Source of the DNA: Candidatus Multivoradales bacterium
GTDB lineage: Bacteria; Acidobacteriota; Thermoanaerobaculia; Multivoradales; J023
Length of the DNA: 64,000 nucleotides
Direction of reading: 5' to 3'
NCBI GenBank assembly: GCA_965248925.1
Contig: CBDFLE010000005.1
Span: 1,344,001 to 1,408,000 of the forward strand
Both the position numbers and the translations under genes were made by a program. Under the pieces are notes generated by a model, which searched no databases, was not told the DNA's origin, and worked only from the letters and a program-made list of their open reading frames with translations. Of this stretch, positions 3,245 to 14,807 are shown in pieces (positions within the stretch are counted from its first letter, which is position 1; each line of letters starts with the position of its first letter).

Positions 3245-5949
3245 TCAGCTGGCCCGCAGGGCCTCGACGGTGTCGGTGCTTGCCGCCTTTAAGGCAGGTC
3301 CCAAACCAGCCAGGGCGGCGACTCCCAGCAGCAGAACCGCCATGGCGAGGAAGATCATCGGGTCGGTTGGCTCGACACCATAGAGCAACGACTCGACCGA
3401 TCGCGACACCACCAAGGCACCCACGCTGCCGAGGGCCAGACCGCAGCCGGCCAAGAGCAGGGTCCTGCCCACGATGCGTCGCAGAACTCCCGCCGCCGAC
3501 TCTCCCAATGCCATGCGGATGCCAATCTCGGGCAAGCGCTCGTTGACCGAATAGGAGAGCACGCCGTAGATCCCCAAAGCAGCCAGCAGCAGAGCGGTAG
3601 CCGCAAAGGCAATAAGCAATTGCAGGGTGAAGCGGCGCGGTGACATCGAACGCTCAACCACCCCGTCGAGGCTCTGGTATTCGCCGGTCGGCAAGGTCGG
3701 GTCTAGCCGGCTGATCGCCGCCGCAACGCTGGGCACCAGAGCAGTGGCCGCCAAACGCGATCGCACCACCATGTCAAGGGTCTGAAAATCACCATTCTGA
3801 GTGACCGGGAGATACATCTCCGAACCCGCACCCAACTCTAGAGACCGATGCCGCACATCGGCCACCAGCCCCACCACCCGATGCTCCGCGCCGTTGATCA
3901 CCATGATCTGGTCGAGGGCGCGCTGGCCGCCAAAGACCCGCTTGGCGCCAGTCTGATTGAGCATCACGACCCGCTCTTGGTCGCCATCGTCGTGGGCACT
4001 GAAGTAGCGGCCCGCCAGCAGCGGAATCTGCATCGATTGCAAATAGCGGCTATCGATCAAATGGGGGAAGACCACCGTCCACTCTTCACCATCCTGGTAC
4101 TCAACCCCCGGTGCCCGCACCGCCCAGGATCGATTGCGCCCCAAAGGCAGAGCATCCGTGAGGCCCACTGCCTCGACCCCAGGAATCGCTGTCACCGCCG
4201 TCAGCGCACGGTCATAGAAGGCGTTGACCTCCGCCAAGCTGTCGAGATTCTGCGGGGTGTTGATCTGCCAAGCATAGGCCCCAGCGGGCTGAAAACCGAG
4301 ATCGACATCGAGCACCCGCTGGAAACTCTTCAACAACAAGCCGCCGAAGACCAGCAAGACGCAGGCCAGGGCGACCTCGGCAATGACCAGACCCTCGCGC
4401 CAACGGGTACTGCGCCGAGTGGCACTCAATCCCCTGCCCGTGCCTTTGAAGGCAGCTGCCTCACTGCCGTTGGAAACCTGCAGGGCGGCACCAGACCCGC
4501 CGCCAAACCGACGACGAAAGTCAGCGCAGTGGTGAAGAGCAAGGCACCGCCGTCGACCGAGACCGAGCGCAAGAGTGGAATGCTCAGCGCGTTGTCGGAG
4601 GCCGCGAATTCGGTGATCGAAACCGCCAGCAGAAGACCGACCCCAGCACCCGCGGTCGCCAATAGCGAACTCTCGATCAACAGCTGACGCAGCAGCCGCC
4701 AGCGGGAGGCACCCAGAGCACTGCGCACCGCCATCTCGCGACTCCGCTTGGTGCTACTGGCCAACAGCAGGTTAGAGAGATTGACACAAACGATAAGCAT
4801 CACCGCTCCAGCCGCCGCCGCCAGCAGCAACATGGCGGAACGGAAGGGGCCAGCGATCTGCCCCTTGAGAGAACTCACCTTGGCTCCTAAACCCCAACGC
4901 TCTGGATCGTCCTTTTTCAAGGCCGCGAGCACCGCGTCGAGTTCGGCCTGGGCGCTGGCGACGGTGGCGCCGGGAGCCAACCGGCCGATCATCGATAGGG
5001 TATTACCCCAGCGGTCGGTCTGATCGCTGATCGGAAAGACGTGCAAGAAATCTACCCTCGTGCTGGGAGTGAAGATGGAGGCAAAGTCGAAAGATGGAGG
5101 CAGCACACCGACCACCTCGAGCGGGCCATTGCTGAAGGAGATCGTGCTACCGACCACCGCCGGATCGGCGGCGAATCGTCGCTGCCACAAGGCGTGGGAC
5201 AAAATCACCACCGGCGGGCCGTTGTCAGCCCCCTCTTCCAAGACGAAGGCGCGGCCATGGAGCGGCTGCACACCCAGCACCTGGAGGAAATCTTGGGCCA
5301 CCGCTGCGCCGACCAGCCTCTCGGGCTCGCCTTCCCCCACCAGATTGTAGCTGCGGTGCTCGAAGAAGGCGTTGTAGCCGGTGATTGCGGTGAAAGACTG
5401 GGTGCGATCACGGAAGTCGCGCAAGTTGCTGGTGCGCGAAGTAACTGCCGACATGCCGCCCACGCCATCGTTGGCAATCCACACCAGCCGCTCAGCTTCA
5501 GTGAGCGGTAACTGGCGCAGCATCAGAGGGCTCAAGACACTAAACACCGCGGTACAGGCGCCGATCCCCAAGCCGACGATCGGCACCGCGAAGAGAAACA
5601 AGCGCGGATCCTTGCGCACCGCGCGCAGGGCATATTTCGCATCCGAAATCCAAGCCGAAGGTCGCAATAAGTCGCTCACGCTCTCTCCTTTGATTTCCGC
5701 CACCACCAGCGAGCTGAGGGGCTGCCGGCGCTGCCGGCGATCACTCAATCCCAAACTGCAAGCCAACACCAATGCCTGGCGCCAGTACCAGAAGTAAGCC
5801 GTCAATGCTCCCCGCCGCCGTGCTAGCCGGCCACAGTCCTCGCTGAGATCACCGAGGATCGAGCGGGTAATATCGCTGGCGCCAAGGCAGCGCAGCAGCA
5901 GCCACTCTGCCCCCCAGGGGGGTCGCGGGATCTGCTGTAGGCTGCTCAC
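3245..5949 (-). pseudogene. ADOP-family (MacB/FtsX duplicated) ABC permease split by a 1-nt frameshift at about 4487
   Basis: ORFs 4426-5949 and 3245-4429 carry the N- and C-halves (LLIxCxNLSNLLLA...REMAVRSALGA; LVIAEVALA...EIGIRMALG). Adding one G in GTG CCG CCC TGC gives a continuous VPALQVSNGSEAAAFKGTGRGLSATRR. Confidence 0.8.
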
Positions 5950-6390: not shown

Positions 6391-8463
6391 CTATGAGCTC
6401 GGCGCCTGCTGGCTGCCGAATCGGCCTGCCGCGAAAGTCTGCAGCAAGGTCGGCAACACCAGCAGGGACAGCACCAGTCCGGCGCCGACTCCCAGACCAA
6501 GAACTTGGGCAAAAGAAGCCAAACCCCGATGACTGGTCAAGGCCAGAGTGACGAAAGCGGCCAGGGTGGTGAGGGAGGTCAGGACGATGCTTCGACCGGT
6601 GCCTATCAGGGTGCTGTGGAGGTCACCTCGCTCCGAGCGGTAGCGGTGAACCAGGTGAATACCGTCGTCGACAGCGATCCCCAGCACCACCGGCAGAGCC
6701 ATGATATCGAGAGGATTGAAGGACAGCCCAAAGAGCTTCATCAGGCCGATCAGCGCGCTCACCGTCAGCCCGGTCGGCATCACCGCTAGCAAAGTCCAGA
6801 GCGGGTCGCGGAATACCGAGAAGACCCAGATCAGAAGCAGAGGAGCGCCCGCCGCAGCCGTCACCCACAAAGCTCGTTTTGATCGCTCGACCATGAATTG
6901 GCCGAGGAAGGGCATGCCGGTGGCTTGGCTGTCGATTGCCAGCATATGATCGATGAAAGTCTGCTGCTCCAGCGGGTCCCAGATGTCAGCCTGAGGATAA
7001 GCGTAGACCGCCAGTTGGCCGGCGGTGGATTCAAAGGCCCGCAGCAGGTCCGGCGGCAGCTCTGCCCGCACTCCCGGCAGCACTTCAAAATCGAGCATCG
7101 AACGCACTGTGCCCACGGTCTCGTCATCACTCAGTCGCCAGACCAGATCTTGTAGCTCTTGGCGTGAGCCAACGGTGAAAGCAGCCAACTCGGGTGACCA
7201 GCTCGACCGCCGCACCATCTCGCGCTCCAGGCGCACAGTCTCTGAGTCTACCGGCTGTAGATTGAGGTAGTCGGTGTCAAAAGACGGCAGCCCACCGAGC
7301 AGTCCCGTCAGGGCAGCTAGCACCAACAGCCAGGCCAGCGGCCGGCTTTGCAACGCCACCAAGATTCGGCCGAGGCGCCGCCCGCCACCAGCCCATGGCC
7401 GCAGCTGTCGCCCGCCAGTCCAGCTAAGACTTAGCAAGGCCGGCAGCACTGTCACCATCGACAACAGACAGATCACCACACCGGTGCCGGCGATCGCTCC
7501 CAATTCAGCGAAGCCACGAAAACCGGAGAGCTGCATTGCCCACAGAACCGAGGCGGTGGTCAGCGCGCTGCCGGCCAGGCTCGGCGCCAGCTCGCCCACC
7601 GCTCGTGGCACCGCCCGCGCCAGCACCAGGCCCTCGCCCAGCAGCTCCTCAGTCCGAGCAACAATGTGAATGCCAGAGTCTATGCCGAGGCCAAGAAGGA
7701 TCGAAGCAAAGAACGCCGACAGCAGAGTGAGGTGGCCAGGGTAGATGGCGGCGAATCCCACCGTCACAACAACCCCGAAAGCCAAGGCCAGGGTCGCGGC
7801 CAAGGGGCGACGGATATCACCAAAGGCAGTGGCGAAGAGCACCAGCACCAAGATCAACGACAACGCCGACAACCGGCCGATGTCACGCTGCACCAAGTTG
7901 CGATCGTCGAGAGCGAAACGCGGCATGCCGGTGGTTCCGGCTCTAACCTGGGTAGCCGCTAATTCCGCCTGCAAACGCTCCTCCACCCCAGCGACGAAGG
8001 GCTCCAGGGTCTCGACCCGAGAGTAAGCATCCTCCGGCTGGACGAAGAGAAATAGCAGTCCGCCATCCTCAGAACTCAGGTAAGGATCGACACCTGTCAC
8101 TTCCACCACCGCCGGATCGAGCGGCAGCCTGGCGAACACACTGCGCACGCCGGGGAGCTGTCGCAGAGCAACCTCCAGCCGGTCGGCGGCACTTCGCAAA
8201 CGGCTTTGATCAGCCCCTTCGAGCACTACCACCAAGCTGTTGGGAGTGCCGAACCGAGCAGCGAAGTCTTGAAACCGCTGCACTGGTGGCAGTTTGGTAT
8301 CGATCAAATCGAGGTTCGAAGTGCGCAGACTCAGCCGGGTCACGGCCAGTCCCAGGGATCCGCCCGCCAACAGCAAAGCCACCAGCAAGACGGCGCCAGG
8401 TTGCCGCACCGAGACTCGGGCGGCGACGGCGAGCATCCCAGCTGCGCGGCCCAGCCAGTTCAT
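6391..8463 (-). CDS. MMPL/RND-family lipid exporter (HpnN-like)
   Basis: Two TM bundles with ILLGLGIDSGIH and VVLGIAVDDGIH; TSLTT motif; ATG 8463 overlaps the upstream stop. Confidence 0.85.
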   Translation of the reverse strand: MNWLGRAAGMLAVAARVSVRQPGAVLLVALLLAGGSLGLAVTRLSLRTSNLDLIDTKLPPVQRFQDFAARFGTPNSLVVVLEGADQSRLRSAADRLEVALRQLPGVRSVFARLPLDPAVVEVTGVDPYLSSEDGGLLFLFVQPEDAYSRVETLEPFVAGVEERLQAELAATQVRAGTTGMPRFALDDRNLVQRDIGRLSALSLILVLVLFATAFGDIRRPLAATLALAFGVVVTVGFAAIYPGHLTLLSAFFASILLGLGIDSGIHIVARTEELLGEGLVLARAVPRAVGELAPSLAGSALTTASVLWAMQLSGFRGFAELGAIAGTGVVICLLSMVTVLPALLSLSWTGGRQLRPWAGGGRRLGRILVALQSRPLAWLLVLAALTGLLGGLPSFDTDYLNLQPVDSETVRLEREMVRRSSWSPELAAFTVGSRQELQDLVWRLSDDETVGTVRSMLDFEVLPGVRAELPPDLLRAFESTAGQLAVYAYPQADIWDPLEQQTFIDHMLAIDSQATGMPFLGQFMVERSKRALWVTAAAGAPLLLIWVFSVFRDPLWTLLAVMPTGLTVSALIGLMKLFGLSFNPLDIMALPVVLGIAVDDGIHLVHRYRSERGDLHSTLIGTGRSIVLTSLTTLAAFVTLALTSHRGLASFAQVLGLGVGAGLVLSLLVLPTLLQTFAAGRFGSQQAPSS

Positions 8464-9404
8464 CGTGGCGGCCCGCCGCCGACAGATCCGGCAGCCAACT
8501 GCGGCATCATCCAACGCAGGCCGGCAATCTCAGCAGCGCGGGCAAAGCGCGGCAGGGCCGAGGAGGGCCGATCGAGCGATAGAGTGAAGGTTCCGAAATG
8601 ACAAGGCACGACTTGCTCGACACCAAGAATCTTGGCCACTCTCACCGCCTCCTCCGGATTCAGATGGAATTTGGCCAGCGGAAACCGCGGCGCGTAGGCG
8701 CCGATCGGCAGCACCGCGACGCGCGGCTGATAGCGCTCAGCGATCACCGCAAAGTGCTCGCCGAAACCGCTGTCACCAGCGAAGTAGATGGCATCTTCCG
8801 GTGATCGGATGATGTAACCCAAGGCCAGCTGGCGGCTCGCCAAGGGGTGATAACGATTGCCATTGTGGGCCGCCTCGACGGCTATCACTTCCAGCTCTCC
8901 CAGCCGCAAACTCGAACCAGGCTCGAGGCTATCGATGCGGATAGCGGGATCGAAAACGCCCTCGAGATACGCGGCGGCCCCAGCGGGTACCAGCATCCGC
9001 CCAAGGCGAGGCACCGCCGCCAGGGTCGGCAGATCGAGATGGTCGTAGTGAGCATGACTAATCAACACCGCATCAAGCGGCCCTAGCTCTCCAGCCGCTA
9101 ATGGTGGAGCCATCAGCCGGCGACTCAGAGTGCAATGCCGGCTGAGGTTTGGATCGACCAGGATTCGCTGCCCCAACCACTCGACCAAGAAACCCGAATG
9201 TCCCAGCCAGTGCAACCGCGGCACCGGCGAATCACCCCGCCAGAGCACCGTTTCCCGAGGTCGCGCCGCCCTTGGGATCTCTTCCCAGCCGGTGGCGCCC
9301 TGCCAGTGTTGGAGAGGTGTCAACCAACCAAGCCAGCCTGCCGAGGCGAGAACTGCTGCCATTAAGATCGCGGCACCGATCAGGCGTCTTCGCTTACCCC
9401 TCAT
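8460..9404 (-). CDS. MBL-fold metallo-hydrolase (NAPE-PLD/RomA-like), N-terminal membrane anchor
   Basis: HWLGHSGF, LISHAHYDHLD, YFAGDSG, LPIGAYAP, PCHFGTF. Confidence 0.88.
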   Translation of the reverse strand: MRGKRRRLIGAAILMAAVLASAGWLGWLTPLQHWQGATGWEEIPRAARPRETVLWRGDSPVPRLHWLGHSGFLVEWLGQRILVDPNLSRHCTLSRRLMAPPLAAGELGPLDAVLISHAHYDHLDLPTLAAVPRLGRMLVPAGAAAYLEGVFDPAIRIDSLEPGSSLRLGELEVIAVEAAHNGNRYHPLASRQLALGYIIRSPEDAIYFAGDSGFGEHFAVIAERYQPRVAVLPIGAYAPRFPLAKFHLNPEEAVRVAKILGVEQVVPCHFGTFTLSLDRPSSALPRFARAAEIAGLRWMMPQLAAGSVGGGPPR

Positions 9405-11457
9405 CCCAGCCTCCTGAAGGTTCAGCGCTGGCCGGACCGCCAAGTTCACGACTCTTGCTGAGCTGCTGAACCCAGGCCACCAGATCCGCCACCTCGCGGT
9501 CCGGCAAAGTCTCATGACCAGGCATCGAAGTGCCCAGCAGGCCGAATTTCACCAGCCGCGCCAAAGCCAGATCCGCAGAATCCGCGCCGGGCCCCCAAGA
9601 CACTGCCCAGAACTCCCCCTTGGTGAGATCCATGGCCGGACGAAAGACCGCCGCCGCCAGCGGTCCATGCCCCCGCCCATCGCTGCCGTGGCAGGCCGCG
9701 CAATAGCTCGCGAACAGCACCGCGCCGCGCTCGCCGCTACCGCCCCTGAAGCTCTCGGCCATCGGATGGGCTGCCACCTGCGCCGCCCAAATGATGAGCG
9801 GTGCCGCCCGCAAGCTCGTCAAATAGGCCACCAAATCACTACCCCGCCGGCCATCGCCAACGAATAGATGCCGGTAGGACGGCATTCTCGACGCTGGCTC
9901 CAGGGTTCGCGGATCGAGCAGATGGAGACGGTGCCAAGTGGCCGAGCGGCGCAAGCCTGCGTTGCTGAGATCGGGACCTTGGCGGCGATTGCCATACAAC
10001 GGGGGACGCTCATTGGCTCCGACTCGGTCCTCCCCGTTCGACCCCGGCAAGGGTCCCCACAACTCAGTGTCCCTGAGCAAGGGGCGGACGTATTGCGAGT
10101 GACAGCCGATGCACCCTTCGGCGATGTAGACCTGGCGACCGCCCGCCACCGCCGCGTCCAACCGCGCTTCAGCTGTCGGGTTTGGCTCCGACCCGCCACC
10201 GCCAAACATCCCCAGGGCGAGGAGGCCGCCAGTGAAAGTCAGGCCATGGCGGCGTAGCAGCCCGGCGAGCCGGCCACTGCCCAGCGCCCAAGCCAGCAGC
10301 AGCAACACAGCAGCGATCAGCACAAAACTCCGCGGAATCTGCTCGCGACCTTGTGCCATGGCAATTCCCAAGCCCGAACCCAACCAGCCCGCGACACCGA
10401 ACAACAACGCTGCGCGAAATCTCCCTGGCACCCGCCCGGGTGCTTCGCCGCCGGCCGAGGGGTAGACTACTAGCGCCACCGAGTAGAACGAGATTCCCAT
10501 CGCATACAACGAGCCCGATATCGCCGCCGCGACACCTCCGAGACTCAGCAAGCGAAAAGCTACCGCAAAGAGAGTGACGGCGCTGAGCAACAAGCCGTGG
10601 AAATTGCCGCGATCGATCCGCCAGCCAGCGATCAGCGCCGCTGCCAAATGGGTCCAACCGATAACTATCTTACCTTGCCCCGCCCAAGTCGCCCCTCGCA
10701 GCACCGGACTTTGCTGGATGATGGCAAATGCCGCTGAGTCGAGCCAAATCAGCGCCAAGAAGGCCAGCACCACAGCGGCAAAACCCAAGCCAGCGAAATC
10801 TCTAGTCATCAGCCCTGCTGGACGGCTTAGCGGCTCGCCGACCGGTGGCTGCGCGGTCTCTCCCCGTTCGAGAAAGGGAGTCGCCGCCAGGCCCGCCAGG
10901 CAAGCCAGCGACGCCGCTACACTCTGCTCCACCGGCGAACCTGCGAAGAGAAGCGGCACATTGCTCAGCAAATATGCCAGGCCGGTTCCCAGGCCAACTC
11001 CCAACCCCAGCCTGCGACCGCCGAGCAGAAATCGCAGACGATAAGCCAGCGAGACCGTGGCCAGTGCCGTCGAGGCACCGATCAGTACAGCGATGGCGAT
11101 CAAGGCGCTCACCGCCGTACATGTCGGTGCCAACAGCGCCGCCAGCGCGCCGCCGGCCAACCCAGCCCGCAGCAGACGCAGGGTCGGCACCTTGCCCAAG
11201 GCCCAGGCGGCACCGAGACTGGTCAACAAGCCCGCAAAGCCCATCGCCCCCATCGCTCGCTGAAGCCAGAGGACCGAGTTCAAGCGCAGTTCGAGCACCT
11301 GGAGGAAACCAAACTGAGCATAGAGCAAGAAGAAGATGTAGACCGCGGCGATCACCACCACGCCGGCAACCCAAGGCGCCAGGCCAACACTCGCAGGTGC
11401 TTCGAGGACTTTGCCCCTCGCCCCGTTGTCGCGGTCAGAATCTAGCGCAGGACTCAT
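9394..11457 (-). CDS. Fusion: MFS-like multi-TM domain + CcoO (cbb3 subunit II)-like cytochrome c + second c-type cytochrome
   Basis: About 12-13 hydrophobic segments, then GRQVYIAEGCIGCHSQYVRP...GNRRQGPDLS...WHRLHLLDPR...SRMPSY (CcoO pattern), then YCAACHG...TSMPG. Confidence 0.85.
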   Translation of the reverse strand: MSPALDSDRDNGARGKVLEAPASVGLAPWVAGVVVIAAVYIFFLLYAQFGFLQVLELRLNSVLWLQRAMGAMGFAGLLTSLGAAWALGKVPTLRLLRAGLAGGALAALLAPTCTAVSALIAIAVLIGASTALATVSLAYRLRFLLGGRRLGLGVGLGTGLAYLLSNVPLLFAGSPVEQSVAASLACLAGLAATPFLERGETAQPPVGEPLSRPAGLMTRDFAGLGFAAVVLAFLALIWLDSAAFAIIQQSPVLRGATWAGQGKIVIGWTHLAAALIAGWRIDRGNFHGLLLSAVTLFAVAFRLLSLGGVAAAISGSLYAMGISFYSVALVVYPSAGGEAPGRVPGRFRAALLFGVAGWLGSGLGIAMAQGREQIPRSFVLIAAVLLLLAWALGSGRLAGLLRRHGLTFTGGLLALGMFGGGGSEPNPTAEARLDAAVAGGRQVYIAEGCIGCHSQYVRPLLRDTELWGPLPGSNGEDRVGANERPPLYGNRRQGPDLSNAGLRRSATWHRLHLLDPRTLEPASRMPSYRHLFVGDGRRGSDLVAYLTSLRAAPLIIWAAQVAAHPMAESFRGGSGERGAVLFASYCAACHGSDGRGHGPLAAAVFRPAMDLTKGEFWAVSWGPGADSADLALARLVKFGLLGTSMPGHETLPDREVADLVAWVQQLSKSRELGGPASAEPSGGWDEG

Positions 11458-11460
11458 GCT

Positions 11461-11868
11461 CTACCGCTGCCGCCACAACTGCCGCAGCCACCCCAGCTGG
11501 GCGATCGCCAGCAGCCAATCCGTGGCCATCACGGTGATCCATGGCAGCGATAGGCCACCGCTCAGCAGGCTGCCGCCGATGAACAGCGCCACCGCCGTAC
11601 GCAGCAAAGCGGTGATCTCGAAAATTGTCCGCAAACGCCCCAGGCGATGACCGCGGTCGAGCAGAAAGGGCAACAGGTAGGCAGCGCCCACCGCAGCGAC
11701 AAACACCCCAACAAAGCGCAGGAAGACGGTGTCAGATGGCGGATCCGAGACACCGAACAACCCCACTGTCAACCTTGGAGCAACGATCAGGGCCAGGCCG
11801 GTACAGCCGTCCAGTAGGCCGACCGCCAAGCTGAAAGTCTCCACTTGTCGGGTGAGACTCAATTTCAT
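11461..11868 (-). CDS. Small four-TM membrane protein
   Basis: 135 aa from ATG 11868 (ATGA overlap with the upstream stop); hydrophobic helices. Confidence 0.7.
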   Translation of the reverse strand: MKLSLTRQVETFSLAVGLLDGCTGLALIVAPRLTVGLFGVSDPPSDTVFLRFVGVFVAAVGAAYLLPFLLDRGHRLGRLRTIFEITALLRTAVALFIGGSLLSGGLSLPWITVMATDWLLAIAQLGWLRQLWRQR

Positions 11869-13190
11869 GCCACCACCTCCTCCGCTGGCGAGCGGGACCA
11901 CGCCGCCACCAGCCATTCAGCGGATGCGGCCAACATCGCCACCCCGCCCCCCAGGCGCAGCCCGTAGAGCAGATCGACAGCTCCCCGCCCGCCGAACAAG
12001 AAGTTGGGCCGGACCGCTTCGAGCGCTCCGAGGATGGTCAAAGAGAGCACCAATAGCAGAGTTCCTCCATGCCACAGCACAAAGGCCCGGCGATGCTGAA
12101 AGAGGCCCGCCAGGGGGGTCTCCCGGTGCATTCCTTCGAGCAGAAGGACAACAAAGCAAGTCAGCATCCCAGCCATCGCCAGATGGGCGTGAGCTACCAG
12201 AGCATTGGTGAATTTCAACCCTTCGAGCAGGCCGGGCAGAAAGGCGACCACCCCACTGACAATCAAGAAACCGCCCCAACCAGCAAAGGCAGAAAGCCAC
12301 CACCTGCCCCCGAGTAACGCCGGAAAGCAGCGCAGATGGCGGCGCAAAAGCGGCCACCACACCACCAGGCTGCACAGGCTAGCCACCTGTAGCCAATCAC
12401 GGTGGCTGTGATCGGCGTGATCGAGCAGCGCGAACCAAACCAGGTGCAGGCCCAACACCACGCCAATCCGCCGTGCACGCCGACCACCCTCGAGAGGCTT
12501 CAAACCAACCAGAAATGGATAAGCGAAGATAATCCCCACCAATGCCAACGAGCTGCCCAACAAGCTGGTTCCCGTGGGCCCGCCACTGATCGGATTGATC
12601 AGCGGGTAGACCGCCGGGCTGGCAACCCAGAACATCACTAGCGGCACCACTGACAGGGCGAGCAGCAGCAGCCCCTTGGCCAGCTTGCCAAGCGGGGACG
12701 ACCAGCCGGTTGCAGAACCTCCCCGGTTGGCTTTCAGCTGAGCGGCGAAACCCACCCACAGAGTCAAAGCCAGGCAGCCCAGAGCCACTGCCAGCAGCCC
12801 TCGCGCGGGGCCGCGCCATTCGAGGAAAATTTTCCCGCTGGACTGTCCAGCAAGCCAGGAAACGGCACCGAAGAGCAGGCTTCCGGACCACACCGAGACG
12901 GCCAGCAATGCCCCCCTGGAGCCGTCCCCGGGCGGCCGAAACAAGCGCAGCAGCACCCCCACCATCGGCAAGCTGACCCAGCCGTAGAGCTGCAAGTTGA
13001 AATGCACTGGCAACCATCGACCGTAAGTCAAAGCACCGGTCAAGCGCCCGAGTTGGGGAAACAGCAACAAGAGGGCGAGCCACACTCCGACCGCGTTGCC
13101 AACCACCAGCCAGGTCAGACTGTGCACCGTGACCTGCGAGGCGAGCGGCGAGTTACTCCCTCGGCGCGCCGCCGGGACGGCCGTACTCAT
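11865..13190 (-). CDS. Divergent heme-copper oxidase subunit I (CcoN-like) with altered CuB site
   Basis: TYGRWLPVHFNLQLYGW ~ CcoN helix II FGRLRPxHTN; SSGKIFLEW ~ SKEYAELEW; FTNALVAHAHLAMAG ~ helix X HxH. About 12 TMs. Confidence 0.75.
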   Translation of the reverse strand: MSTAVPAARRGSNSPLASQVTVHSLTWLVVGNAVGVWLALLLLFPQLGRLTGALTYGRWLPVHFNLQLYGWVSLPMVGVLLRLFRPPGDGSRGALLAVSVWSGSLLFGAVSWLAGQSSGKIFLEWRGPARGLLAVALGCLALTLWVGFAAQLKANRGGSATGWSSPLGKLAKGLLLLALSVVPLVMFWVASPAVYPLINPISGGPTGTSLLGSSLALVGIIFAYPFLVGLKPLEGGRRARRIGVVLGLHLVWFALLDHADHSHRDWLQVASLCSLVVWWPLLRRHLRCFPALLGGRWWLSAFAGWGGFLIVSGVVAFLPGLLEGLKFTNALVAHAHLAMAGMLTCFVVLLLEGMHRETPLAGLFQHRRAFVLWHGGTLLLVLSLTILGALEAVRPNFLFGGRGAVDLLYGLRLGGGVAMLAASAEWLVAAWSRSPAEEVVA

Positions 13191-13206
13191 CCCTTCACAC
13201 CTTCCT

Positions 13207-14229
13207 CTAAGCCGCCGCCAGGCGCTCTTCCATTTCGCGACACTCGTTCTCCAGCACCTCTTGCAAGCGCTCCAGGGGCCGCCACAGGATGGCATCAGCC
13301 TGATTACTCAGGCCAGCAATGATCTCCCTGCCTTCGTCGAGCAACCGGTTGACCTGCGCAGCCGCCTGCCGGACCCCCAACGCCTGAGCCAGATTGGGTC
13401 GCCCGAGCAGCCGATCGCGACCGGTTGACTTGCCAGCTTCTTGGCCCGACATCATCTGGTCCTTGAGGTCATCGAGAGCCTGATAGCCCAGGCCCCAGGT
13501 CAGCGCCAAACCCTCCAAGCGAGCTAACTCGCCAGCATCGCAGCCAGCGACCAAGGCCGGCAGCACCAGGGTCAGACGCACCAGGGTCACCGTCTTGCCC
13601 TCCGCCACCTGGCGGGCTTCCACCGCACCGCCGCGAAAAAAAAGGTCTTTGGACTGACCATTCAAGATACCCGCCACACCGAGGCAATCATCCACCAGGC
13701 GCGCCGCCGTTTGTTGACACTCAGCCGGCAACGGACCCAGCACCCGCCACAGCAGGTCGTAAGCGCGGGTGATCAAGGCCAACGAGCCGAGGATCGCTGC
13801 CCCTTCGCCATACACCCGGTGCGGGCAAGGCCGGCCGCGCCGCTCGACCGCATCGTCCATCGCCGGTAGATCGTCGAGCAGCAATGATGCGGTATGAAAG
13901 TACTCGACCGCAATGGCCAGCTCGAGAGCCGGCTGAGCGGCTTCGCCGTGGGCCCGCATCAAGCCGTAAATCACCTGCGCCCGCAGCAAGCCACCCGGAT
14001 GGTCGAGGGTATCGACCAAAACCCCGCGCAAATGCTCTTCGGTACCTGCGCCAACCTGCAGCAGATCGCGAAAGCCCGCCTCGACAAAGCGCCGGGGCAG
14101 GGGATCGAGGACGTTCCGCGGTGACTTCTCCGCCTTCGGAAAGCGGCTCGGAGCCGACTTTGCACCGAGTCCGGGCAGCGGCCGGGGCCGGGGCCAGCGA
14201 TCCAAGTCGCGTACTTCGCTGAGCGACAT
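13207..14229 (-). CDS. Trans-polyprenyl diphosphate synthase
   Basis: FARM EYFHTASLLLDDLPAMDDAVERRG, GQSKDL, KT, SARM YQALDDLKD, GKSTGRD; SD AGGAGG before ATG 14229. Confidence 0.9.
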   Translation of the reverse strand: MSLSEVRDLDRWPRPRPLPGLGAKSAPSRFPKAEKSPRNVLDPLPRRFVEAGFRDLLQVGAGTEEHLRGVLVDTLDHPGGLLRAQVIYGLMRAHGEAAQPALELAIAVEYFHTASLLLDDLPAMDDAVERRGRPCPHRVYGEGAAILGSLALITRAYDLLWRVLGPLPAECQQTAARLVDDCLGVAGILNGQSKDLFFRGGAVEARQVAEGKTVTLVRLTLVLPALVAGCDAGELARLEGLALTWGLGYQALDDLKDQMMSGQEAGKSTGRDRLLGRPNLAQALGVRQAAAQVNRLLDEGREIIAGLSNQADAILWRPLERLQEVLENECREMEERLAAA

Positions 14230-14240
14230 CCTCTGGCCTC

Positions 14241-14807
14241 CTAGTGCAACGGGCCACGAGCTCTTACGCTGACTTCGACAACTTTGCCCACTCGCAGAAA
14301 GAGCAGGCTCGGATTTTTCATTCCCCACTCCACATAGGGAACAGAGAAAGTAGTCTCGGCATCGAAGGTCTCTCCATCGAGGGTGAACTTGGCTGCCATC
14401 GACAAAGGGTGCTCATCGCCATGGATAGAAATGGTGCCAAAAATCTCTACTTCGCCGCTACCATCCGCCGGCAGCGTACCCTCGAAACGGCTCGGCTCGA
14501 AGACGATCCAGGGAAACTTCTCGGTTTCGAAAACCTTTTTGTGCATCGTCGCATCGCGTTTCTCGTTACCGGTTCTCGCCGATTTCAGAGCGAGCTTCAA
14601 CATGCCGCTGGCCTTGCTGCTCTGCGAATCCAGTCGCAGCTCGCCTTCGCTGAGTTGCAGCTGCCCTTCGACATCGTGGCCGGTCGCCGGCACATGAAAA
14701 GAAACCTCGGTCGCATCCAAGTCGAAGGTGATTATGCGTTCGACAGCAAACATCGAAGGAGCCAGGCAGAGCAGTCCAAAGTAACAGGTTAAGAGGATTC
14801 GGATCAT
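14241..14807 (-). CDS. YceI-family polyisoprenoid-binding periplasmic protein
   Basis: Signal peptide; TGNEKRDATM...FETEKFPWIVF...GTISIHG. Confidence 0.88.
   Translation of the reverse strand: MIRILLTCYFGLLCLAPSMFAVERIITFDLDATEVSFHVPATGHDVEGQLQLSEGELRLDSQSSKASGMLKLALKSARTGNEKRDATMHKKVFETEKFPWIVFEPSRFEGTLPADGSGEVEIFGTISIHGDEHPLSMAAKFTLDGETFDAETTFSVPYVEWGMKNPSLLFLRVGKVVEVSVRARGPLH

Follow-up and report, generated by a model that had tools for sequence, protein, structure and literature searches.

The stretch of DNA analysed here, hereafter the window, comprises 64,000 nucleotides (nt) of the genome of Candidatus Multivoradales bacterium (Acidobacteriota; Thermoanaerobaculia) and corresponds to positions 1,344,001 to 1,408,000 of contig CBDFLE010000005.1 (assembly GCA_965248925.1). 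The minus strand of the window carries a gene for a membrane protein which resembles subunit I of the heme-copper oxidoreductases (HCO) and which is referred to below as the HCO-like protein. The initial annotation, made from the letters of the DNA, had described it as a heme-copper oxidase subunit I that keeps the heme ligands but lacks the canonical ligands of CuB. All of the motifs on which that description was based (GRWLPVHFN, KIFLEW, SGGPTGTSLLGSS, DHADHSH and VAHAH) were located at the places given for them. The gene and its motifs are as follows.

11865..13190, minus strand: HCO subunit I-like diheme membrane protein of 441 amino acids (aa) with 12 predicted transmembrane (TM) helices, apparently without canonical CuB/FeB ligands
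12996..13022, minus strand: helix II motif GRWLPVHFN (residues 57-65), including H63 at the low-spin heme ligand position
12816..12833, minus strand: III-IV loop KIFLEW (residues 120-125), the counterpart of the CcoN loop SKEYAELEW
12549..12608, minus strand: V-VI loop and start of helix VI, reading YPLINPISGGPTGTSLLGSS in the window protein (family signature YPPINPxSGGPTGxSLLGS)
12549-12587, minus strand: motif SGGPTGTSLLGSS (residues 202-214)
12402..12422, minus strand: VII-VIII loop DHADHSH (residues 257-263), in place of the helix VII His-His pair
12183..12197, minus strand: helix X motif VAHAH (residues 332-336), in which H334 is the proximal position of the high-spin heme and H336 the second ligand position of the low-spin heme

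The open reading frame (ORF) of the gene extends over 11865..13295 of the minus strand (476 aa). In the database the gene is called in its 441-aa form, beginning at the ATG at 13190 (P0001, 100% identity), a start which leaves a 16-nt gap to the upstream gene ending at 13207.

The placement of the HCO-like protein in the HCO superfamily is borne out by the predicted fold as well as by structure and profile comparisons. The AlphaFold2 (AF2) model, with a predicted local distance difference test score (pLDDT) of 88.4 and a predicted template modelling score of 0.90, consists of 12 long helices. A Foldseek search with this model retrieved 57 chains of the PDB at E≤0.001, and among the 50 matches listed all are HCO subunits I or complexes holding one. 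The best match is CcoN of a cbb3 oxidase (8smr_E, E 1e-9, TM-scores 0.68/0.65), followed by the cytochrome c-dependent nitric oxide (NO) reductase, cNOR (4xyd_A, 2e-6), and then by the ba3 and aa3 types. The structural alignments made with VIA-align gave Z scores of 18-26.6 over about 370-410 residues for the HCO matches overall. CcoN (3mk7_G) reached Z 26.6 with 398 aligned residues and a root-mean-square deviation of 4.2, a score with which those of cNOR are tied (4xyd_A, Z 26.3; 3o0r_B, Z 25.6), and the quinol-dependent reductases (qNOR) and the A-family chains followed with Z 21-24 and about 18, respectively.

At the level of profiles, an alignment of 36 homologues of the HCO-like protein (A1) was compared by hhalign with ten CcoN-type sequences from Acidobacteriota genomes, four of them above the TIGR00780 cut-off and six divergent. 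The two were aligned over 406 columns in global mode with a probability of 99.2% (E 1.3e-18). A search of the PDB with the A1 profile retrieved three cbb3 CcoN sequences (E 3.6e-7 to 2.4e-5) and, at E values up to 10, nothing further, NorB chains included. For the single sequence, phmmer found no match in the PDB, the Pfam scan made no assignment to a family at E≤0.01, COX1 included, and the NCBIfam scan returned only one match, in which residues 55-109 align with a CcoN model at 22 bits. In the genome from which the window derives (completeness 96.9%), TIGR00780 (ccoN) had 0 matches, and a genome-wide search with PF00115 (COX1) found two other loci above its cut-off on contig C6, which were not assigned to an HCO type, and not the HCO-like gene, of which the genome holds a single copy. 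One of these matches, at G000:C6:2425235-2426272 (L082/L083; 307 bits), contains one in-frame TAG, and beside it the C-terminal part of the COX1 model has a match of its own (39 bits). The locus may be a broken or frameshifted cox1. COX1 does match 10 of the 36 members of A1 (best E 3.1e-13). The Pfam family DUF2871 weakly matches 12 of them (best E 0.0022), more than COX1 does. Taken with the predicted fold, the HCO-like protein is best explained as the putative subunit I of an uncharacterised and separate branch on the cbb3/NOR side of the HCO superfamily.

Residue conservation was counted over 205 full-length homologues, and the columns equivalent to those of CcoN were taken from the hhalign profile-profile alignment. 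The heme ligands that had been noted in the window protein are nearly invariant: the helix II His (H63) is present in 204 of the 205 sequences, H334 of the helix X HxH in all 205 and H336 in 203. The conserved CcoN Arg of helix XII aligns with R412, which is found in 204. The loops around the hemes include further residues that scarcely vary, namely K120 of the KIFLEW loop (202/205) and G204 and T206 of the V-VI loop signature (204/205 each).

The canonical copper ligands are not found in these columns. The column of the helix VI CuB His (position 208, encoded by 12567-12569 in the window) is occupied mainly by small residues (Ala 60, Thr 55, Gly 48, Val 16, Ser 10) and holds His in 9 of the 205 sequences, in keeping with the initial remark that a WYGHN-type His is missing. 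The columns of the helix VII His-His pair are 260, which is mostly acidic or amidic (Asp 124, Asn 38, His 19), and 261, which is variable (Arg 62, His 54, Ala 21). The cross-link Tyr of cbb3 oxidases corresponds to column 254 (Ala 74, Leu 49, Gly 31) and the neighbouring column 253 contains Phe 154, Tyr 19 and Trp 13. Position 212, four residues after the helix VI position, where the FeB Glu of cNOR would be expected, is Gly in 160 sequences, Ala in 20 and Ile in 7, and is without Glu. In no part of the profile-profile alignment do three His fall at the CuB positions. It is confirmed, as far as aligned ligand positions can tell, that the family keeps both heme sites and is without the canonical CuB/FeB site, the Tyr or the Glu, which supports the suggestion of a remodelled or absent binuclear site.

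The VII-VIII loop follows a variable family motif, (D/G)H-G-(D/N)-x-S-(H/N)-(H/R)-(E/D), in which H258 is present in 137, H263 (codon 12402-12404 in the window) in 159 and H264 in 102 of the 205 homologues; position 263 is Asn in 38 of them and 7 loops are devoid of His. The statement that there is no adjacent HH pair is correct for the window protein but not for the family, since 96 of the 205 members have one, as S-H-H, two residues past the canonical position. The rare His at position 208 occurs solely together with N263 (9/9, vs 0/159 with H263; Fisher 7.5e-7, phylogeny ignored). This covariation fits positions 208 and 263 being neighbours with one role. H208 may be a distal histidine that has 'migrated', though a single clade would account for the pattern equally well. 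The members with H208 and N263 also show G212A.

The extent of the family was estimated in three ways. A word-indexed protein search scored 8000 candidates, of which 408 had E≤0.001, an exhaustive profile search of cluster representatives (50% identity) yielded 681 at E≤0.001, of which 323 reached 1e-10 and 213 reached 1e-30, and in a collection of contigs with one genome per species 242 of 331 pattern matches encode a relative of the HCO-like protein. The best 80 of these 242 loci, on which all of the locus statistics below are based, belong to Acidobacteriota (Thermoanaerobaculia, Holophagae and others), to Verrucomicrobiota (Opitutaceae, Akkermansiaceae, Luteolibacter, Prosthecobacter, Puniceicoccaceae and others) or to unclassified 'bacterium' records. 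Among close relatives of the source organism the gene is present in 10 of 41 genomes at E≤1e-20, or 9 of the 34 of high quality, the genome under study included.

A quick maximum-likelihood tree was built from 46 rows (29 of the family, 10 of CcoN type and 7 other HCO ORFs not assigned to a type), cNOR rows not being part of it. The 29 family rows are monophyletic on a stem of 2.74 substitutions per site with an SH-aLRT support of 100, and two of the 'other HCO' rows, guessed from their length to be qNOR, grouped with A-type sequences. The HCO-like protein does not cluster within a characterised HCO family of this tree, and the COX1 and ccoN models miss it. Judged by these searches and this tree, the family is a discrete one outside the curated COX1 and ccoN models. 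Neither the family nor its operon is described in the papers covered by a literature search. A search of sequencing runs listed four DNA runs from one study, probably that of the source sample, and no RNA run.

Immediately downstream of the HCO-like gene lie two genes whose products are the likely partners of the HCO-like protein. They were annotated as follows.

11461..11868, minus strand: small subunit with four TM helices, 135 aa from the ATG at 11868, overlapping the stop of the HCO-like gene by ATGA
9394..11457, minus strand: fusion of a major facilitator superfamily (MFS) domain, a FixO domain and a cytochrome c domain, 687 aa, starting 3 nt past the end of the small gene
about 10168-11457, minus strand: MFS-fold domain of 12 TM helices plus one anchor helix, the N-terminal 430 residues of the fusion
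9859-10143, minus strand: FixO/CcoO-type heme c domain of the fusion, with CIGCH (Pfam FixO, 2.2e-25)
9457-9732, minus strand: second cytochrome c domain of the fusion, with CAACH (Pfam Cytochrom_C, 1.6e-12)

The small 4-TM protein has conserved D36, R106 and D133 (ORF numbering) and no conserved His or Cys. The N-terminal domain of the fusion was identified as MFS from weak PF07690 matches in some homologues, from a match to monocarboxylate transporters in a PDB profile search (E 0.005) and from an AF2 model (pLDDT 90.1) for which Foldseek retrieved the transporter OxlT (8hpk_A, E 6.8e-7). The extra helix that follows it would carry the chain to the periplasm. A role of this domain as a CcoA-like copper importer was set aside, being odd beside a protein without a CuB site. 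A tblastn search of the 80 loci detected the small protein in 69 of them; 68 contain the cytochrome c part and 66 the MFS part. In five verrucomicrobial loci, L033, L042, L055, L058 and L074, which come from metagenome-assembled genomes (MAGs) of Lacunisphaera, Nibricoccus and Oleiharenicola, the FixO-cytochrome c part follows the small 4-TM gene closely according to tblastn and is without an MFS domain.

Natural fusions join the same proteins. The HCO-like and small proteins are fused in five representatives (P0147, P0155, P0171, P0214 and P0234), and P0199 (1130 aa) is an HCO-like protein fused to the MFS-FixO-cytochrome c protein. In addition, the metagenomic sequence P0254 (781 aa) contains the HCO-like N-terminus and MFS fragments, then FixO, cytochrome c and a metallo-beta-lactamase (MBL)-fold hydrolase; it may be mis-assembled, or it may be fused by nature, in which case the MBL hydrolase would be tied to the complex as well.

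A complex was predicted from the alignment of the HCO-like protein and residues 425-687 of the fusion, with four hemes included. It received ipSAE scores of 0.90, 0.90 and 0.91, as against 0.00 for the best control; the mark applied to this score is reached by 58 of 80 solved complexes and by 2 of 110 mismatched pairs. At least 91% of the contacts are shared between runs and the pLDDT of the partner is at least 79. The FixO domain was placed on residues 41-61, 115-121, 192-204, 323-332 and 395-402 of the HCO-like protein. Such a result may stem from likeness to the solved cbb3 structures and is to be read as likeness rather than as proof of binding. Taken together, synteny, the fusions and the complex prediction support an assembly of the HCO-like protein with the 4-TM protein and the MFS-FixO-cytochrome c fusion.

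The genes around these three are packed on the minus strand, with the ATGA overlap at 11868 and the 3-nt spacing downstream of it; because of this tight packing the cluster looks like an operon. Its remaining members, which are linked to lipids by their families, are listed below.

14241..14807, minus strand: YceI-like lipocalin of the polyisoprenoid-binding family (Pfam YceI, 2.3e-20)
13207..14328, minus strand: prenyl-diphosphate synthase paralogue of presumably short-chain type, i.e. for farnesyl or geranylgeranyl diphosphate (Pfam polyprenyl_synt, 6.6e-30)
8460..9515, minus strand: MBL-fold hydrolase with a hydrophobic N-terminal segment (Pfam Lactamase_B_2, 9.8e-35; NCBIfam PRK00685, 2.4e-26)
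6391..8514, minus strand: resistance-nodulation-division (RND) transporter of the HAE3/MMPL type (Pfam MMPL, 8.1e-28)

The neighbours were counted with phmmer and tblastn, and the counts based on ORFs are lower bounds, as spurious antisense ORFs took the place of genuine ones in these loci, which are rich in GC. When ORFs were grouped by single linkage, fused or spurious ones caused separate families to merge, and the resulting clusters served only to choose representatives for Pfam. YceI, searched with two YceI queries, is present in 71 of the 80 loci and in 64 of the 66 that have at least 4 kb of upstream sequence; 66 of the 71 YceI genes lie on the same strand as the HCO-like gene and no more than 4 kb upstream of it. 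The assignment is equally clear in locus L024 (Pfam 2.2e-18).

The prenyl synthase is found upstream of the HCO-like gene in 71 of the 80 loci. Among the NCBIfam models, the copy in the window scores highest against FPPsyn (121.7 bits) and CrtE (101.8 bits) without reaching the cut-off of either, and its first Asp-rich region reads as what we take to be the short-chain type. It ranks fifth of six PF00348 matches in its own genome and is hence a divergent extra paralogue. The possibility that it supplies the tail of heme O or A was considered as well: there is no heme O synthase among the Pfam-scanned neighbours, no dedicated search having been made. MenF was ruled out as a core member of the system, being a neighbour in only 6 of the 80 loci.

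The exporters are of two kinds. The MMPL/RND transporter of the window is nearest to HpnN (TIGR03480, 301 bits) and BstA (252 bits), which are associated with hopanoids and sterols, although both scores are below the cut-offs; such transporters are present in 26 of the 80 loci, downstream in those of the Acidobacteriota type, and so is the MBL-fold hydrolase in 34. In verrucomicrobial loci the synthase and HCO-like genes are instead separated by those of a MacB-like FtsX permease and an ABC ATPase (50/80 each). One exporter or the other, MMPL or MacB-like FtsX, is found in 75 of the 80 loci.

Several other genes near the cluster deserve mention. Two-component genes lie just downstream in 38 of the 80 loci, many of them verrucomicrobial (e.g. 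L024, 11417-13440), and comprise either an OmpR-type regulator with a HAMP kinase or hybrid kinases with Reg_prop/Y_Y_Y domains, which hints at inducible expression of the cluster. Two-component regulators, PAP2 phosphatases (8 loci) and sulfatase-family proteins are neighbours in some verrucomicrobial loci. In the window itself, two adjacent ORFs of the minus strand, 3245-4429 and 4426-5949, overlap by 4 nt and represent the two halves of a duplicated permease of the ADOP family, matching positions 408-802 and 2-390 of TIGR03434, respectively, with E about 1e-110 each; they are either a split or frameshifted gene or a natural two-piece form.

The presence of YceI in 64 of 66, of the synthase in 71 of 80 and of an exporter in 75 of 80 loci turns the genomic context towards a role linked to lipids or quinones. 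YceI proteins have precedents for such a role. According to the parts of PMC9113575 that deal with it, there is a genetic link between YceI-family lipocalins and a diheme membrane cytochrome in the detoxification of lipid peroxyls, and one homologue has ubiquinone-8 as a ligand; there, BcnA (YceI) and LcoA (cytochrome b561) guard the envelope against lipid peroxyl radicals, and redox cycling of a lipocalin-bound quinone has been proposed. YceI-like domains are likewise described, in the relevant section of PMC8981238, as binding polyisoprenoids and ubiquinone-8 and as adjoining c-type cytochrome domains in Cbp2D.

The explanation which we favour, and which we hold to be quite possible though short of probable, is that the HCO-like protein and its partners form a copper-free, cytochrome c-linked diheme module which serves an isoprenoid or quinone lipid and is not a terminal reductase of O2 or NO. 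The protein would retain the scaffold of 12 helices, the two heme b sites and, as its partner, a cytochrome c of CcoO type, and the distal side of the high-spin heme would be lined, as far as the alignment indicates, by the V-VI loop (NPxSGGPTGxS) and the VII-VIII loop instead of by the copper ligands. Electrons would be exchanged between a cytochrome c in the periplasm, the pair of c hemes, heme b and the high-spin heme, and the module could serve the extracytoplasmic redox chemistry of an isoprenoid lipid, e.g. a short-tailed quinone or a radical-scavenging terpenoid. For this lipid, the neighbouring prenyl-diphosphate synthase would be the source, the YceI lipocalin beside it the carrier and the HpnN-like RND or MacB-like ABC exporter of the cluster the route outward. 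Such a module would parallel the envelope anti-peroxidation pair of YceI/BcnA and cytochrome b561 (LcoA), and the complex would be neither a proton-pumping O2 reductase nor a respiratory NO reductase. The gene context points to envelope isoprenoid/quinone redox chemistry rather than to terminal respiration. The electron-transfer or quinone/lipid-modifying heme protein that had been suggested at the outset in place of a terminal oxidase agrees with this context (YceI, synthase, exporter), while the function itself is deduced from it.

A more far-reaching version, which is doubtful, takes the oxidase scaffold to have been repurposed as a copper-free cytochrome c:isoprenoid-lipid oxidoreductase, the lipid being a quinone or a radical scavenger, within a new redox-lipid shuttle of the envelope or outer membrane. 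The parts of the shuttle would be the flippase-like MFS domain, the YceI carrier, the private synthase and the outward exporter, and it might serve antioxidant defence or the extracytoplasmic delivery of electrons in Acidobacteriota and Verrucomicrobiota alike.

A number of observations weigh against the lipid-linked explanation. Most VII-VIII loops offer one to four His together with acidic residues, at least one His being present in 198 of the 205 homologues, and these nearby histidines could form a non-canonical metal site. The covariation of H208 and N263 is uncorrected for phylogeny and may reflect a single event or one clade, the residues of the distal pocket are assigned from alignment columns and not from the heme-facing side in coordinates, and the tree is a quick one without cNOR rows. 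The cytochrome c part occurs without the MFS domain in the five loci named above, so that the MFS module appears to be separable. The type of exporter differs between the phyla, and the MBL hydrolase and the MMPL transporter are found in only 34 and 26 of the 80 loci, respectively. Adjacency of genes would in any case speak for linkage rather than for a chemistry, and any substrate, metal content or direction of electron flow named here is a proposal drawn from genes and models.

Two of the rival explanations would retain a reductase. The protein might be a terminal reductase that has no copper and passes electrons from cytochrome c to O2, H2O2 or lipid hydroperoxides by way of the high-spin heme alone. 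It would then act as a membrane-bound cytochrome c peroxidase or oxidase, beside which the lipid genes would merely be co-regulated envelope functions. We consider this unlikely, even if the input of electrons typical of cbb3 oxidases is intact (the heme c of FixO and a second heme c, CIGCH and CAACH) and the proximal His and the propionate Arg are practically invariant (H334 205/205, R412 204/205). His or Asn at 263 and Asp or Asn at 260 resemble the acid-base residues of heme peroxidases; those distal residues are, however, not invariant, as H263 is present in 159 of the 205 sequences and the loop of 7 has no His. Moreover, no chain of ionisable residues leads in from the cytoplasmic side among the columns conserved to at least 85%, as deduced from the helix map. 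The precedent of YceI and cytochrome b561, which deals with peroxidised lipids in the account of PMC9113575, would suit a peroxidase, but the cross-link Tyr, held in the main text of PMC11214002 to be necessary for O2 reduction, is missing. Reduction of NO or N-oxides for detoxification, at a non-heme metal site rebuilt from His, Asp and Glu of the VII-VIII loop, appears less probable still. The fold is equally near to cNOR and cbb3 (Z 26.3 and 25.6 vs 26.6), the loop offers up to three His as well as carboxylates, and other HCO families with altered ligands have been proposed or shown to reduce NO, as presented in PMC11214002. Against this, the helix VI His and the Glu of cNOR are both missing and the loop ligands vary, single-His loops such as IGGTHFD being found in the verrucomicrobial loci L056, L064 and L079. 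In addition, searches of the source genome for NirK, NirS and NosZ (TIGR04246) gave nothing above cut-off, and none of the 80 tabulated neighbourhoods includes N-oxide genes.

There is also the prospect of a non-catalytic relic, e.g. a subunit that acts as a scaffold, a sensor or a store of electrons and has no substrate for its heme pocket. The catalytic ligands are indeed gone, and the patchy occurrence among close relatives (10/41 genomes; 9/34 of high quality) suggests that the gene is dispensable. Yet the periplasmic loops are under strong purifying selection, with G204, T206, S213, K326, F327, E391 and R412 near-invariant, the gene order is kept across two phyla and the full c-heme input chain is retained, all of which makes a relic very improbable. 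The copper-free module serving an isoprenoid lipid is the reading that is kept here as the preferred one, at the tentative strength stated above.

The family matters to bioenergetics and to envelope biology alike. Its members are named 'cbb3-type cytochrome c oxidase subunit I/II' or 'hypothetical' in databases, and owing to such names surveys of Acidobacteriota and Verrucomicrobiota metagenomes may tally them among the high-affinity oxidases and overestimate microaerobic respiration. It may be regarded as a natural experiment in which the heme-copper scaffold is left without copper, Tyr or FeB site, while the heme pair and the c-heme input chain are retained under strong selection. The company of YceI, synthase and exporter would give a handle on what YceI lipocalins carry and do, and the cluster also bears on the supply of redox-active or protective isoprenoid lipids to Gram-negative envelopes. 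Records without a MAG label are available among the matches (Opitutaceae bacterium D2-102 and MBA3-11), as are MAGs in Prosthecobacter and Luteolibacter, so that genetics and purification look feasible.

Among known systems, the cbb3 oxidases provide the closest comparison. The HCO-like protein shares with CcoN the 12-TM fold, the helix II His, the helix X HxH and the propionate Arg, as well as the GR..P.H and K..(E/D)W loops, and its FixO/CcoO-type partner, encoded two genes downstream and extended by an extra cytochrome c domain, is predicted to dock on the periplasmic loops. Unlike in cbb3 oxidases, the helix VI His, the canonical HH and the cross-link Tyr are absent from the family, TIGR00780 and Pfam COX1 miss the window protein, the CcoO-like domain sits behind an MFS domain and there is an extra 4-TM subunit. 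The operon differs too, in that it contains YceI, a prenyl synthase and lipid exporters, whereas genes of the ccoQ/ccoGHIS type were not seen in the tabulated neighbourhoods, no dedicated search for such genes having been made. With cNOR and qNOR the family has in common the absence of the Tyr cofactor, and with cNOR a fold score tied with that of cbb3; unlike cNOR, it has neither the FeB ligands (three His and the helix VI Glu) nor a denitrification context.

Replacement of the canonical CuB/FeB ligands within the HCO superfamily has been described, in the portions of the literature covered here, for gNOR, NOD and OccS. Murali et al. (2024) list known and new HCO families (PMC11214002). In gNOR, a member of the B-family side with a cupredoxin subunit, one His is replaced by Asp (PMC11214002). 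Since the main text of that work states the three active-site His to be fully conserved in all HCO families except gNOR, the present family would not be among those described there; it could yet correspond to the 'N2O red' HCO family, which the same text barely describes. OccS of 'Ca. Dechloromonas occultata' is reported to be without several of the CuB ligands and to keep the heme histidines (bioRxiv 10.1101/695007). It is, as far as that account goes, betaproteobacterial and retains the first CuB His, unlike the HCO-like family. What sets the family apart from both OccS and gNOR is the loss of the helix VI His along with the Tyr, the pairing with FixO and the occurrence in Acidobacteriota and Verrucomicrobiota.

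From the side of the lipocalin, the cluster resembles BcnA-LcoA and yceI-yceJ/CybB of E. coli, where a YceI gene is likewise tightly linked to the gene of a diheme membrane cytochrome b. The analogy with BcnA-LcoA would be a functional one only: the cytochrome has the 12-TM HCO fold instead of the 4-helix b561 fold, its electrons would travel via c-type hemes, and the cluster brings its own prenyl synthase and exporters.

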